A stretch of DNA of 64,000 bases, from the NCBI RefSeq assembly GCF_000027125.1, contig NC_017626.1; one strand, given 5' to 3'. The notes under the pieces were generated by a model. The model had not been told where the DNA came from and did not search any database. It was given only the letters and a program-made list of their open reading frames with translations. How positions within the stretch are numbered: the first letter of the stretch is position 1; every line of letters begins with the position of its first letter. The translations under genes were made by a program, and so were the position numbers. Of this stretch, positions 7,365-13,333 are shown in pieces. Source of the stretch: Escherichia coli 042. Lineage in GTDB: Bacteria; Pseudomonadota; Gammaproteobacteria; Enterobacterales; Enterobacteriaceae.

Positions 7365-8678
7365 TCAATCTTTTTTATCGGGATCAGGCTTCTTTTTAGG
7401 TAACTTCGGGGGCTTAACTTGCTGATGACTTTGCGTTCGGCGCGTAAGCCAGGGATGGTCAGCTTTAGGTTTAACATAGTATTTTGAGCGTAAATCAATA
7501 CGGGCATTATCCACTCGTTCATGGACACTCTTTTCATCATCCAGTGGTATAGGCTCCGGGCCATCAACATACTTTTCCCAGCCCAGCGCTTTCCCGTCAT
7601 ACAGAACGTTAATTTCACCGTCAAAGTTCTCGCATACAGTAACAACCGAATGCCTAAGTCGATATCCCCGGCCCTCACTGCGTACCTGAAACGCACTGCT
7701 TTTGTACTGGAAAGTGAGATTTTTAGACAGAACGCGCTTCGCCTGTAGGCTGAAGATATAACCCAGTTCCTCTTCAGAATGGTGCACATCAAGATGAGCA
7801 TTATCAGTAGTACGAGGCGACGTAGCGAACCGGTTGTTATAGGCTTCAATAAAGGTCGGCAACCATGCATTTGCTGTTTCAATATCACTGATATTCTGAA
7901 GCCGCATTTCTTTGACCAGCCTGTCCTGTAGTGTCTGATTGGCGCGCTCTACCCGCCCTTTTGCCTGCGGGCTGTTGGCATGGATTGGCTCGATGCCCAG
8001 TGTCTTTATCGCACGAGTGAACTGGGTCAGCTCACCTTCCCGCTCTGGGTTATTTACCCTGAATATACTGTGTCTATCAGAGTAGAGAGCGAGCGGTACG
8101 CCATGATCATTAAGGTAACCCCGGAGGGTTTCCATGTAAGCCCGGGTTGTTTCAGCAGGCACAAAACGCAACGCCATCAACGCACTGGTGGCATCATCAA
8201 TGAAAACGATCAGTGTACATCTGGGGCCTCGATTTTCAAACCAGTCATGAGGTGAGCCATCAATCTGGATCAGTTCACCGTAAGATGGTCGTCGCATGCG
8301 GCGTTGATATATACGGGCAATTTTACGACGGCGTTCACGCCATAACCCCTCTTCTACCATCCACTTTCTGAGAGTTTCAACGGATAAAGATAAACCGTGT
8401 ATCTCGCGCAATTTTTCGCACGCAAACGTAGGTCCAAAATCAGCGTAACGGCCTTTGAGGAGTGAAATTACTGTTGCTCTGAATTCAGTAGAAAAGGAAT
8501 TATTAGGACGCTTTCCACGTCGGTGGGAAACCAGACCAGAAGGCCCTTCATTTCTATACCGTTGCACCAGACGTTTAACCTGCCGAATAGAAATGCCAAT
8601 GCGTGCCGCAGCTTGTTCCTGAATAATCTGAAGTCGGTGGAGTTCCTTATGACTCATCGTAACAGTCTCTTTGATCAT
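7365..8678 (-). CDS. DDE (rve-type) transposase, 437 aa, IS481/ISNCY-like
   Basis: N-terminal HTH (RIGISIRQVKRLVQRY) plus integrase-core DDE region (LIQIDGSPHDWF...LIVFIDDATS...SDRHSIF...GRVERANQTL); absent from K-12 at this position by recollection. Confidence 0.7.
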   Translation of the reverse strand: MIKETVTMSHKELHRLQIIQEQAAARIGISIRQVKRLVQRYRNEGPSGLVSHRRGKRPNNSFSTEFRATVISLLKGRYADFGPTFACEKLREIHGLSLSVETLRKWMVEEGLWRERRRKIARIYQRRMRRPSYGELIQIDGSPHDWFENRGPRCTLIVFIDDATSALMALRFVPAETTRAYMETLRGYLNDHGVPLALYSDRHSIFRVNNPEREGELTQFTRAIKTLGIEPIHANSPQAKGRVERANQTLQDRLVKEMRLQNISDIETANAWLPTFIEAYNNRFATSPRTTDNAHLDVHHSEEELGYIFSLQAKRVLSKNLTFQYKSSAFQVRSEGRGYRLRHSVVTVCENFDGEINVLYDGKALGWEKYVDGPEPIPLDDEKSVHERVDNARIDLRSKYYVKPKADHPWLTRRTQSHQQVKPPKLPKKKPDPDKKD

Positions 8679-9012
8679 GAAAAATCCCCCAGAGAATTGT
8701 CTGGGGACATTTTAGAATGGTTCAAAGGGGACATTACAGCTTGGTGTTAACAATAGCCTGCTTCTCCGTGCCTTTCGGCACGTAAGAGGCTAACCTACAT
8801 GTGTCTAGCATGAAATTGGCCTCAGATTAATGTTAAGCGTCTTGCAGGACGCGTAATGTTAACTGGGGCTTTTCTCTATCTGCCGTTGGTGTCCATGCCC
8901 GAGGCAGATAGCCTCAAGCACCCGCAGTCATTCTACTTAACTAAGATTTCCCCGCAAACCGTTTTTGTCCAGCACAGTAAATATCCAACTAAACCAATGG
9001 AGTTCGCTGTAT

Positions 9013-9192
9013 TTACCGCCAGTATTCAATGCACATGACCGCCATGAACACCCCTAAAAAAAGGGCATTTATATATCCAAATATTAATATCAAAACATCA
9101 ACTTTTTCCATATACCTTGCTGTGAAGATGATGGGCATACATGATGCGAACAACCAGAACGCAACAAACAAAAACTGCAATGCGTTTTTCAT
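9013..9192 (-). CDS. Small two-TM membrane protein (59 aa)
   Basis: AGGAGG 6 nt upstream of ATG; MKNALQFLFVAFWLFASCMPIIF...LILIFGYINALFLGVFMAVM hydrophobic. Confidence 0.45.
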   Translation of the reverse strand: MKNALQFLFVAFWLFASCMPIIFTARYMEKVDVLILIFGYINALFLGVFMAVMCIEYWR

Positions 9193-9446
9193 TATTCCTC
9201 CTACAATCAATGTGCAATTACATTTAAACACACCTCAATTTGGCCGGACATATAAATATCTAAACCAGAAAAAATCACTTACATAGCGTTACAAACTCTT
9301 TAGTCTAAAGGTTCATCGTAAAACATTCCCCATACTTATCAGTCCGTTCCGCGCCAGGTAGCTCATTGCCTTATCTGGCAACCTGTAATCAGGTTTCCGC
9401 TTTTTCAGTTGGCTGGTCGTTTAACCGACATAGTTAATCCATTAAT

Positions 9447-9734
9447 CTAGTTGCCGGATGTTGGTGGATTTTCGCGTTTTAGTTGTTCATAAAAGTGCAC
9501 AGCTTTAACCAGTTCTTCTGATGTAACTGGGACTGGTGAGGCAGTGAATAAGGCCTGAATTTGATAGTTCGGCCTGTCGTTACAATCCTCTTTTTTCGGT
9601 ACATATTTCCAGTCACCAGACCACTACTTCCCCTGAAAGTCCGTAACGCCTTTTTTCACGTAGCGATATCGCCATGCCACTGGTTTTGCTTGCCCCGCCG
9701 TTTCATGCCCTTCCTGATAATTAATCTCGCTCAT
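9447..9734 (-). pseudogene. Prophage ORF with in-frame amber (TAG) at codon 37
   Basis: MSEINYQEGHETAGQAKPVAWRYRYVKKGVTDFQGK-amber-WSGDWKYVPKKEDCNDRPNYQ... reads through a single TAG at 9624-9626. Confidence 0.35.
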
Positions 9735-10344
9735 TCATCGCCCCACTCATCACAATATGCTTCGACCGGAGTTTTTCCCGCTTCATAGTCATCACGCTAG
9801 GATTCGACATCAGCAGCACTTCCACCGCGTAACTCACCATAGTCCATTAATAGTTCATCCCGCTCTTCAAAACTGATGTTATATTTAGCTGAACAAAAAT
9901 CAGCCACTTTGTTCTTCCTCATCGTCTTTTATTTCGTGGTATGAGTAATTGCAGTAGTTAAAGAAAATTTCTTATGCTCCGTCATGAATTTCCTCAGGTG
10001 TTGCGTCATCGTCCACTTCGAATACATCCTCAAAATCTCCACCAGCTATTCCCGTTTCAATAATAATTTTGAACTTTCGCATTTCACTACCGCCCTTTCG
10101 GGCGGCCTCCTGATGTTCTGAGGGTGCAGAAATCCATCCGGTTAAGGATTAAATTTTATTTACAGAACTGAATTTAATTATTCAGATATACGTATCTGTA
10201 GCCTTACGAATCTACTCACTGGATGCCTCTTTCATAAAAATAATCCAGTGGGTTTTATCGTTTTTTCCCTGTTCGTTGACAGATAACAGGTTTTCTGTCT
10301 GTCAGTGCCAGAATCTGGCTTACCGGTATTTGCGTTTCATTCCA

Positions 10345-10701
10345 TTAAAAAATCAGAACGCCGTGCGGCCTCAACACCCGAAAGGCTTCTTTAAATCTCT
10401 GTCGCGAATCATCACGCCAGGCATCTTTATTCAGCCGTCCATATTTCTTTCCCATCCAGGCGTTATCACCAACACTCTCAAGATGCGGAGGGTCTAATAC
10501 AACCATCGAAAAAGATGCGTCTGCAAATGATAATGCACGAAAATCTGCGATAATGTCAGGGCTGATAATCAAGCGTCTCCCATTGCGTAATGTGTATCCT
10601 TCTTTTCTGATATCGCTGAATATCGCCCGTTCGTCAGACTTATCGAACCAGAACATGCGGCTGCCACAGCACATATCAAGAATGGTTGCCGGTGCACTCA
10701 C
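10345..10701 (-). CDS. Small SAM-dependent methyltransferase-like protein (118 aa), probably phage DNA MTase
   Basis: Motif I-like ILDMCCGSRMFW and motif IV-like VVLDPPH; nin-like region of lambdoid prophage. Confidence 0.45.
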   Translation of the reverse strand: MSAPATILDMCCGSRMFWFDKSDERAIFSDIRKEGYTLRNGRRLIISPDIIADFRALSFADASFSMVVLDPPHLESVGDNAWMGKKYGRLNKDAWRDDSRQRFKEAFRVLRPHGVLIF

Positions 10702-11120
10702 TGCGCCACGTCCTGAAAATTACCCTGATAGAAAGCCAGTATGCGCTGCATAACTTCGCTCTTCCGGCACTCGCGACAGATTATGTTTAGGCGACTGTCG
10801 TAGCGACGTATTTCTCCGTCAGGTGATGACCAGATAAGGTCCGGATCAACCACAGCAGGTTTCTTCACCTTTGCCCTCGAGAGTTTTTTGCGGGCGTTTT
10901 GCCAGTCCTTACGCGCCTGTTCAGAGGGGAATAACCCGTAGCCGGAGTTGTATACATCGCCACTGGCTACCAGCTCTCTGGCAAGAACGCTCATCAGATA
11001 TCTAGTCGCACCTGTTTTAGCTTCCAGTTGCCGTAACGTCTCACGGCCGCTCTGGCGCACGAGTTCCACCACCTGCCATTTAATTTTTTCCCGCTCTTCT
11101 TGTGTAAAAACTTTTGCCAC
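10698..11120 (-). CDS. Hypothetical phage early protein (140 aa)
   Basis: ORF in operon with replication gene; stop overlaps downstream gene start. Confidence 0.45.
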   Translation of the reverse strand: MAKVFTQEEREKIKWQVVELVRQSGRETLRQLEAKTGATRYLMSVLARELVASGDVYNSGYGLFPSEQARKDWQNARKKLSRAKVKKPAVVDPDLIWSSPDGEIRRYDSRLNIICRECRKSEVMQRILAFYQGNFQDVAQ

Positions 11121-12126: not shown

Positions 12127-12628
12127 AATTCCATCCAGCTTTTTGTTGGTATTGCTGTCGATACGCAAGTTTGAAAGCAATTGCTTTTTCTATAAGTTCG
12201 TCAGTTTCACGATCCACTACGGCAGGATCAGCAAAAAGCAGTCCGGACTCCACCACATCGCCATATTCTTTGTTTAACCCGGCGATCATGCACGTGATGC
12301 TTTTTCCGTCAGTAATTTCACGATACAACCTGAAATCATTAATCCGGATAGCCTCCATAATTGCAGGCACTAGCGCCGTGAACTTTTCACGCTTATCCCT
12401 GGTGTCGATAGCCTTCCAGCGTTCAAATATCTTCACTCGATTAACGCCAAGCGCTCGCTGATCAATCGCGCCACCTTCATATGTGACACGCTGAACATCG
12501 ATGTTCGGGCGCTCTTTCAAAGCCCAGAATGCTTCAGTGATTAATATCGTCGCCTGCTCCTGTGTCATTCCTGGTCGACATATCCAGGCATCCAGAGCCT
12601 CACGAGCCTGTTCAGGAGTGATTTTCAT
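12107..12628 (-). CDS. Phage early protein, YdfX-like (173 aa)
   Basis: ORF directly downstream of dicC in same operon. Confidence 0.45.
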   Translation of the reverse strand: MKITPEQAREALDAWICRPGMTQEQATILITEAFWALKERPNIDVQRVTYEGGAIDQRALGVNRVKIFERWKAIDTRDKREKFTALVPAIMEAIRINDFRLYREITDGKSITCMIAGLNKEYGDVVESGLLFADPAVVDRETDELIEKAIAFKLAYRQQYQQKAGWNYEPSFC

Positions 12629-12842
12629 TGTTCAACCGCCCCGCCCGCTTCGTCTTACGATATTCATCATAAACTTTGGGATCATACTGAAGCTCCCCGC
12701 CAGATGCCTCCTGTAGACGCATCGCGCGACCTTCGGGAACTAAATCCCCTTTCCAGCTATAAAGCGAAGCCAAACGAATACCTGCTGCTTGTGCAAGTTT
12801 TGTTTTTGAACCGAAATACAAAAGAGCGTCAGTTTTAAGCAT
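12612..12842 (-). CDS. dicC: Cro-like repressor DicC
   Basis: 76 aa MLKTDALLYFGSKTKLAQAAGIRLASLYSWKGDLVPEGRAMRLQEASGGE...; divergent from dicA. Confidence 0.9.
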   Translation of the reverse strand: MLKTDALLYFGSKTKLAQAAGIRLASLYSWKGDLVPEGRAMRLQEASGGELQYDPKVYDEYRKTKRAGRLNNENHS

Positions 12843-12925: not shown

Positions 12926-13333
12926 ATGGAAACAAAAAATTTAACTATCGGCGAACGCATCAGGTATCGTCGGAAAAACCTCAAACACACCCAAAGGTCT
13001 CTTGCTAAAGCCCTGAAAATCTCCCATGTGTCTGTATCACAATGGGAACGGGGTGATAGTGAACCTACAGGGAAGAACCTTTTTGCCCTCAGCAAAGTAT
13101 TGCAATGCTCACCAACATGGATTCTATTTGGCGATGAAGACAAGCAACCAACACCACCTGTTGAGAAGCCAGTTGCCTTATCCCCCAAAGAACTAGAGCT
13201 CCTTGAGCTGTTTAATGCACTGCCAGAATCAGAACAGGATACCCAGCTCGCCGAAATGCGAGCTCGAGTAAAAAACTTCAATAAACTCTTTGAAGAATTA
13301 CTAAAAGCCCGTCAGCGGACAAATAAAAGATAA
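12926..13333 (+). CDS. dicA: CI-like HTH repressor DicA
   Basis: 135 aa METKNLTIGERIRYRRKNLKHTQRSLAKALKISHVSVSQWERGD...; recalled identity. Confidence 0.95.
   Translation: METKNLTIGERIRYRRKNLKHTQRSLAKALKISHVSVSQWERGDSEPTGKNLFALSKVLQCSPTWILFGDEDKQPTPPVEKPVALSPKELELLELFNALPESEQDTQLAEMRARVKNFNKLFEELLKARQRTNKR

Follow-up and report, generated by a model that had tools for sequence, protein, structure and literature searches.

The stretch of DNA analysed here, 64,000 nucleotides of the chromosome of Escherichia coli 042 and referred to as the window throughout, contains the lambdoid prophage Qin and within it a 95-codon frame that is interrupted by an amber codon and lies close to two short open reading frames of 36 and 41 codons. 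This raises the question of whether these are small genes in their own right, parts of a gene whose expression depends on amber suppression, or genes in decay. Our analysis makes it very likely that these are dispensable genes undergoing mutational decay in a resident Qin prophage kept under repression. Decay was one of two options that a first-pass annotation of the DNA had offered for the amber codon, and it is borne out by uninterrupted orthologs, by several further disabling lesions and by the pseudogene labels that PGAP has given to two of the three genes concerned, A and C, in the Qin prophage of E. coli ATCC 8739.

Between positions 9300 and 10400 the window is 100% identical to strains ATCC 8739, W, IAI39 and many others. 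The genes that we call A, B and C are three consecutive small genes on the minus strand, with replication genes and a methyltransferase gene upstream and a hok/sok remnant and an IS element downstream. In ATCC 8739 they are preceded on the same strand by dicC, a YdaT-like gene, an O-like replication gene, a DUF977 gene and a SAM methyltransferase gene, and are followed by genes for an ISNCY transposase, ydfW, flxA, ydfV, relBE, hokD, rem, ydfU and ydfT (antiterminator). By this gene order they reside between replication genes and a Q-like late antiterminator in the rightward early operon, and the earlier placement in a 'prophage nin-like region' is therefore a fair label, based on a comparison by position and not via lambda's own nin genes. 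The flanking methyltransferase, DUF977 and replication genes are still open, unlike A, B and C. The features on which the following rests are:

12926-13333, plus strand: DicA, recognised in the ORF list
12612-12842, minus strand: DicC, recognised in the ORF list
10090-10111, minus strand: leader of gene A, with AGGAGG at 10106-10111 followed by the hairpin CCGCCC-GAAA-GGGCGG at 10090-10105, from folding and haplotype comparison
9900-10082, minus strand: gene A pseudogene, DUF7167 / PHROG 1997, 60 aa if intact, corresponding to ECOLC_RS26670 ('internal stop')
9972-9974, minus strand: ochre at codon 37 of gene A, AAA>TAA, from comparison with intact relatives
9731-9907, minus strand: gene B pseudogene, PHROG 519, 58 aa if intact, without PGAP annotation
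9905-9907, minus strand: native ATG start of gene B, now GTG (M1V), from comparison with intact relatives
9797-9799, minus strand: amber at native codon 37 of gene B, TGG>TAG (W37*), from comparison with intact relatives
9313-9734, minus strand: gene C pseudogene, PHROG 660 family, corresponding to ECOLC_RS26235 in E. coli ATCC 8739 ('frameshifted; internal stop')
9624-9626, minus strand: the originally reported amber at codon 37 of gene C, where two thirds of the sampled orthologs have sense codons
9467/9468, minus strand: junction of an in-frame deletion, flanked by AATCCRCCAG direct repeats, that removed 90 nt from gene C as compared with the 171-aa form
9447-9449, minus strand: second premature amber in gene C, CAG>TAG, with CAG aligned in L037 and L008
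9416/9417, minus strand: 4-nt frameshift deletion in gene C (TGGT in long-form relatives), from alignment

ECOLC_RS26670 and ECOLC_RS26235 are identical in sequence and coordinates to 9900-10082 and 9313-9734 of the window, respectively.

Uninterrupted orthologous versions, the comparison proposed with the first-pass annotation, exist in phage vB_EcoS-689R5 (URC08891-URC08893; A, B and C of 60, 58 and 119 aa), in vB_Apl-pPE4 (gp18-gp20; 57, 58 and 119 aa) and in most of 120 IMG/VR contigs, a sample retrieved with a degenerate pattern spanning codon 37 of gene C. Both phage modules show ~89-90% DNA identity to the window and share its gene order, overlaps and leader, whereas their gene C ends in a different C-terminal module (...ETGAWKDAVDWVLKEAC...). 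Intact gene C orthologs are also present in mEp460 and in IMG/VR loci. In functional relatives the genes are closely spaced, and stop and start overlap at both junctions, as ATGGCTGA from A to B and as ATGA from B to C, which implies translational coupling. The record of vB_Apl-pPE4 (L005, PP818812.1, 'Actinobacillus phage vB_Apl-pPE4') names Actinobacillus pleuropneumoniae as the host; it features an E. coli lambdoid module with ~90% DNA identity together with a Hok/Gef gene, and the Actinobacillus host assignment looks doubtful.

Profile searches place all three genes in phage protein families. When its TAA is restored to a Lys codon, gene A matches Pfam PF23768 (DUF7167) with 51.6 bits against a gathering cut-off of 24.4, covering model positions 1-60, and PHROG 1997 with E=1.6e-29; as encoded, only residues 1-36 can be made. 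Homologs of DUF7167 were found in E. coli only, and the family is absent from papers in the searchable literature. Gene B with its stop replaced matches PHROG 519 (E=5.3e-14) and gene C matches PHROG 660 (E=8.8e-29). Gene C is a member of a large, mosaic family of hypothetical proteins (1,645 matches, nearly all from E. coli), and its relatives measure 119-171 aa. Sequence searches of Pfam, NCBIfam and PDB with B and C returned nothing informative. Pfam matched neither the restored gene C protein of the window nor the 171-aa long form, and neither qualifies as an Ead/Ea22-like (PF13935) protein; that domain is found only in some gene C relatives, as the N-terminal part of a fusion (P0083). For the 171-aa form, AlphaFold2 gave a model with a pLDDT of 51.5, which is of low confidence and unusable.

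Against this background the three frames described originally can be read as parts of longer genes. Their coordinates are exact (9972-10082 for the 36-codon ORF, 9797-9922 for the 41-codon ORF and 9447-9734 for the interrupted frame, all on the minus strand), and the label 'acidic' is apt for both short ORFs (pI 4.05 and 4.61). The view of the latter as independent genes with their own ribosome-binding sites did not hold, as they are N-terminal stumps of the nonsense-truncated 60-aa and 58-aa genes. The start codon of the 41-codon ORF (ATG, 9920-9922) arose through GAA>GAT in the tail of gene A and is confined to the window's lineage. The interrupted frame does carry TAG at codon 37 and translates as MSEINYQEGHETAGQAKPVAWRYRYVKKGVTDFQGK*WSGDWKYVP...ENPPTSGN*, i.e. 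36 aa, TAG (9624-9626), 58 aa and TAG. Its terminal TAG (9447-9449) is a second premature stop and not the natural end; gene C runs on to 9313, and its native C-terminus (...PDYRLPDKAMSYLARNGLISMGNVLR) and stop at 9313-9315 are out of frame after the 4-nt deletion. The 90-nt deletion is shared by otherwise intact natural variants (P0035), so it may be harmless and need not inactivate the gene. The nearest sense allele that shares the flanks of the codon-37 amber has TGG at this position.

A, B and C thus qualify as pseudogenes: intact, constrained homologs exist elsewhere, and the window carries K37* in A, M1V and W37* in B, and two ambers plus a 4-nt frameshift in C. In the window's lineage gene A was inactivated by AAA>TAA, gene B by the loss of its ATG and by TGG>TAG, and gene C by an amber (TGG or CAG to TAG), a second amber (CAG to TAG) and the 4-nt frameshift deletion. 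Full-length products of A, B and C are impossible, and at most short N-terminal stumps might appear, only upon lifting of DicA repression. The loss would probably represent neutral decay of dispensable resident-prophage genes.

The comparison of intact and broken copies points in the same direction. Outside the window's lineage, nearly all loci of the IMG/VR sample have open A and B genes, and among 32 in-register intact haplotypes pN/pS amounts to 0.20 for A and 0.17 for B; such low values indicate that they are real genes under constraint. The changes specific to the window's lineage comprise one synonymous and five non-synonymous or nonsense changes in gene A and three synonymous and seven non-synonymous changes plus the amber in gene B. 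Taken together, 4 synonymous stand against 13 non-synonymous or nonsense changes (Fisher p=0.03 versus intact polymorphism), although counts are small and the single genes yield p=0.19 and 0.15; with this restriction the pattern is suggestive of relaxed constraint in the window's lineage.

The broken alleles are by no means peculiar to one strain. Among 5,426 complete E. coli genomes, the gene C amber (exact 41-mer) is present in 914 (17%), the gene B amber (exact 39-mer) in 497 and the gene A ochre (exact 39-mer) in 481, all matches being chromosomal. Some homolog of gene C, judged by its first 175 nt, is present in 1,734 of the 5,426 genomes, such that about half of these (914/1,734) have the amber. 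Identical alleles in hundreds of independently assembled genomes must therefore be real and not sequencing errors. In strain TUM17668 the gene C amber, in an allele with TAG and 8 A's, resides in the Rac prophage (racR, ydaS, ydaT, kilR, trkG) beside intact A and B, and PGAP labels this gene (RJ647_RS12380) 'frameshifted; internal stop'. The amber is accordingly shared by Qin and, judging from the single genome examined for this, Rac, that is, by two cryptic prophages at different chromosomal sites, which is consistent with modular exchange among lambdoid elements. It also occurs in phage records, e.g. that of 640R1, and genes of the A-B-C set are broken in the records of both 640R1 and PhiR42_1; a literature search on the latter phage found nothing. 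The Rac gene of TUM17668 and that of 640R1 have TAG at codon 37 and flanks identical to the window, but differ from it by 8 instead of 6 A's upstream, equivalent to an extra frameshift, by a 57-nt deletion and by intact A and B genes. More generally, the A-run located 30 nt upstream of the amber consists of 6, 7 or 8 A's depending on the TAG-bearing sublineage, some of which have the further 57-nt deletion. These differences are independent secondary lesions, as expected of a dead gene.

The truncated alleles of A and B belong to a single lineage (16 of 74 module-bearing sampled sequences, the window included). We infer that gene C was lost first and that A and B followed later in a Qin sublineage, because the gene C amber is about twice as widespread and is common to Rac-type prophages. 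In native numbering all three stops fall on codon 37 (9972-9974, 9797-9799 and 9624-9626), at a spacing of 175 and 173 nt. This is most likely a coincidence because the lineage in which the gene C amber arose is another and an older one than that of the stops in A and B. In the record of 640R1, URC10046.1 (2623-2880 of L003) is annotated as an 85-aa 'hypothetical protein' and represents gene C read in the wrong frame after the run of 8 A's; it bypasses the TAG only through this frameshift, its C-terminal 57 residues are basic junk, and it is an annotation artefact over a pseudogene.

Could the loss itself have been advantageous? Early accessory genes of lambdoid phages, kil among them, are often toxic, and nonsense alleles might be selected in the course of domestication if intact early genes harm the lysogen, for example by toxicity on leaky expression. 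Nonsense mutations in each of three adjacent genes with open genes on either side would fit, as would the high frequency of the gene C amber in complete E. coli genomes and its presence in two different cryptic prophages; its travelling in phage records such as that of 640R1 could likewise reflect selection for loss. In IMGVR_UViG_2703718816_000016 (L019), a member of an unrelated lineage with an otherwise intact module and CAG at codon 37 of gene C, a stop is present at Trp-37 of gene B. This is a parallel, independent nonsense mutation in the very codon struck in the window, and it too can be counted in favour of selection. There is, however, no sign that A, B or C are toxic, and other resident prophages commonly carry intact copies. 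The high allele frequency is explained equally well if old cryptic prophages were inherited vertically, and secondary lesions accumulate in the same way under neutral decay. We therefore regard adaptive inactivation as unlikely. Selected silencing of costly or toxic A-B-C genes in both Qin and Rac with the gene C amber spread by recombination, or, as a different possibility, a gene A leader that is a natural split Shine-Dalgarno enhancer, appears quite improbable.

Functional micro-protein genes with their own translation signals are another reading of the 36- and 41-aa acidic ORFs. The stump of gene A does retain the conserved leader, AGGAGG and ATG, and 36-aa versions have been called by gene callers in public data (P0179, P0185). 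Against this, both ORFs truncate longer conserved genes, the truncated alleles are restricted to the one lineage mentioned above, the remainder of each gene is still recognisable after the stop, and lineage-specific changes are mostly non-synonymous. In addition, the 41-codon ORF owes its ATG to a substitution in gene A's tail, and inspection short of a formal scan revealed no ribosome-binding site ahead of this ATG. It is thus very improbable that the two ORFs are genes of this kind, although stumps of 36-41 aa might conceivably be translated.

The second option offered originally for the amber was expression dependent on a suppressor, i.e. decoding of the gene C TAG by an amber-suppressor tRNA of host or phage or by leaky termination, yielding a protein of 95 aa or more. 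The frame is protein-like and homologous to real proteins on both sides of the TAG, and the allele is widespread. Yet the stop is not conserved: in IMG/VR and reference loci (n=128) codon 37 is CCG in 40 cases, CAG in 25, ATG in 11, TTG in 6, CTG and TGG in 2 each and TAG in 42, such that two thirds of the sampled sequences (86/128) have one of six different sense codons. Downstream of the TAG, the second TAG (9447-9449) and the frameshift (9416/9417) intervene before the native C-terminus is reached, TAG sublineages contain the additional A-run frameshifts 30 nt upstream, and the stop in the adjacent gene A is TAA, a codon that an amber suppressor does not read. ARAGORN detected no tRNA gene in the 64-kb window, so the window supplies no suppressor. 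Suppressor-dependent expression is accordingly extremely improbable. Programmed frameshifting or transcriptional slippage at the run of 6 A's was considered separately and discarded, as the products of sister lineages having 7 or 8 A's are unrelated and not conserved.

Chance open frames in non-coding DNA or sequencing or assembly errors have a negligible probability, since strong homology to phage families, intact orthologs under purifying selection and alleles present in hundreds of complete genomes outweigh the fact that such frames are common (~79 ATG-started frames of at least 95 codons with exactly one internal stop per mononucleotide-shuffled window, 190 in the real window). By these figures the frame alone is within reach of chance, and it is homology, not its length, that marks 9447-9734 as a gene remnant.

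We thus return to decay as the preferred reading. Our best guess, by inference, is that the early right operon carries the intact A-B-C genes as dispensable accessory genes. Resident prophages are known to decay via pseudogenisation of accessory genes, as Bobay, Touchon and Rocha reportedly described in 2014. The decay as such is largely known already from the RefSeq/PGAP annotation of A and C as pseudogenes; gene B (9731-9907) was overlooked by PGAP and is added here together with the individual lesions and their distribution. The locus shows cleanly how dispensable accessory genes decay step by step in old cryptic prophages of E. coli, and the dead gene C allele common to Qin and Rac illustrates module exchange between resident prophages. 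For annotation, the apparent micro-ORFs at A and B should not be counted as small-protein genes, and some phage records carry frame-shifted junk ORFs over gene C, the 85-aa ORF in 640R1 being an example.

Some observations concern the surroundings of the three genes. A scan for promoters and terminators gave nothing above chance within 9447-10082, and an Rfam scan of 8600-10800 detected only sok RNA, outside A-B-C. This antitoxin RNA (8752-8923, minus strand) is of full length and scores 104 bits against a gathering score of 59. Homology to phage 640R1 ends exactly at the start codon of hok, where the IS element begins (junction near 8752); the transposase ORF of the element encodes 437 aa (7365-8678). 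It appears that the hok toxin gene has been replaced by the IS element, with the sok/mok leader left behind as an orphan. A small conserved ORF (9013-9192, minus strand), situated between gene C and the remnant of sok, encodes a hydrophobic product of ~59 aa starting with MKNALQFLFVAFWLF..., likely a membrane protein, and has GGAGG 5 nt ahead of its ATG. Its copy in 640R1 is 99% identical; the record of that phage instead has 'hornerin' annotated on the other strand. On the other side, a terminator-like hairpin with a T-run (10346-10379, minus strand) covers the final codons of the methyltransferase gene (10345-10701) and is separated from gene A by a spacer of ~260 nt; a tR-type terminator in front of the nin-like genes is one possible interpretation.

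The leader of gene A deserves a closer look. The 'strong' ribosome-binding site claimed for the 36-codon ORF stands insofar as AGGAGG is present; it is situated 23 nt from the ATG, however, which is not a normal Shine-Dalgarno spacing. The CCGCCC-GAAA-GGGCGG stem in the gap is seen in both the MFE and the centroid structure and is kept across 18 leader haplotypes with one compensatory (CCACCC/GGGTGG, L010) and one single-sided variant. It lacks a T-run and is therefore not an intrinsic terminator, a possibility we had considered. Within the 3' arm of the hairpin, at 8 nt from the ATG, there is a weaker Shine-Dalgarno-like GGCGGT that might be the true ribosome-binding site of gene A.

Three comparisons with known systems help to put the locus into perspective. 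Phage genes that depend on amber suppressors are familiar from laboratory mutants (e.g. lambda Sam7 or Pam80), and natural read-through from the A1 protein of Q-beta. Gene C shares with them an in-frame stop inside a phage gene but differs in that its stop is not conserved, the downstream frame is broken further and the window provides no suppressor tRNA. Genes 38 and 25 of phage T4 have split Shine-Dalgarno leaders, in which a hairpin draws a distant Shine-Dalgarno sequence near the AUG. Gene A would be a candidate for this type: 23 nt separate AGGAGG from the AUG, and a stable hairpin with a GNRA loop, itself conserved, fills precisely this gap, which is the structural hallmark of such leaders, a distance of more than 15 nt filled by a stable hairpin. 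A point of difference is the weaker GGCGGT 8 nt from the AUG. Finally, while gene C of the window contains neither an Ead/Ea22-like (PF13935) nor a DUF551 (PF04448) domain, its core (AWRYRYVKK...GDWKYVP.KEDCNDRP.YEIQALF) occurs in lambdoid mosaics fused to Ead/Ea22-like N-termini or DUF551 C-termini, and the proteins of these two types are, just as gene C, encoded by small accessory genes in early/nin regions.
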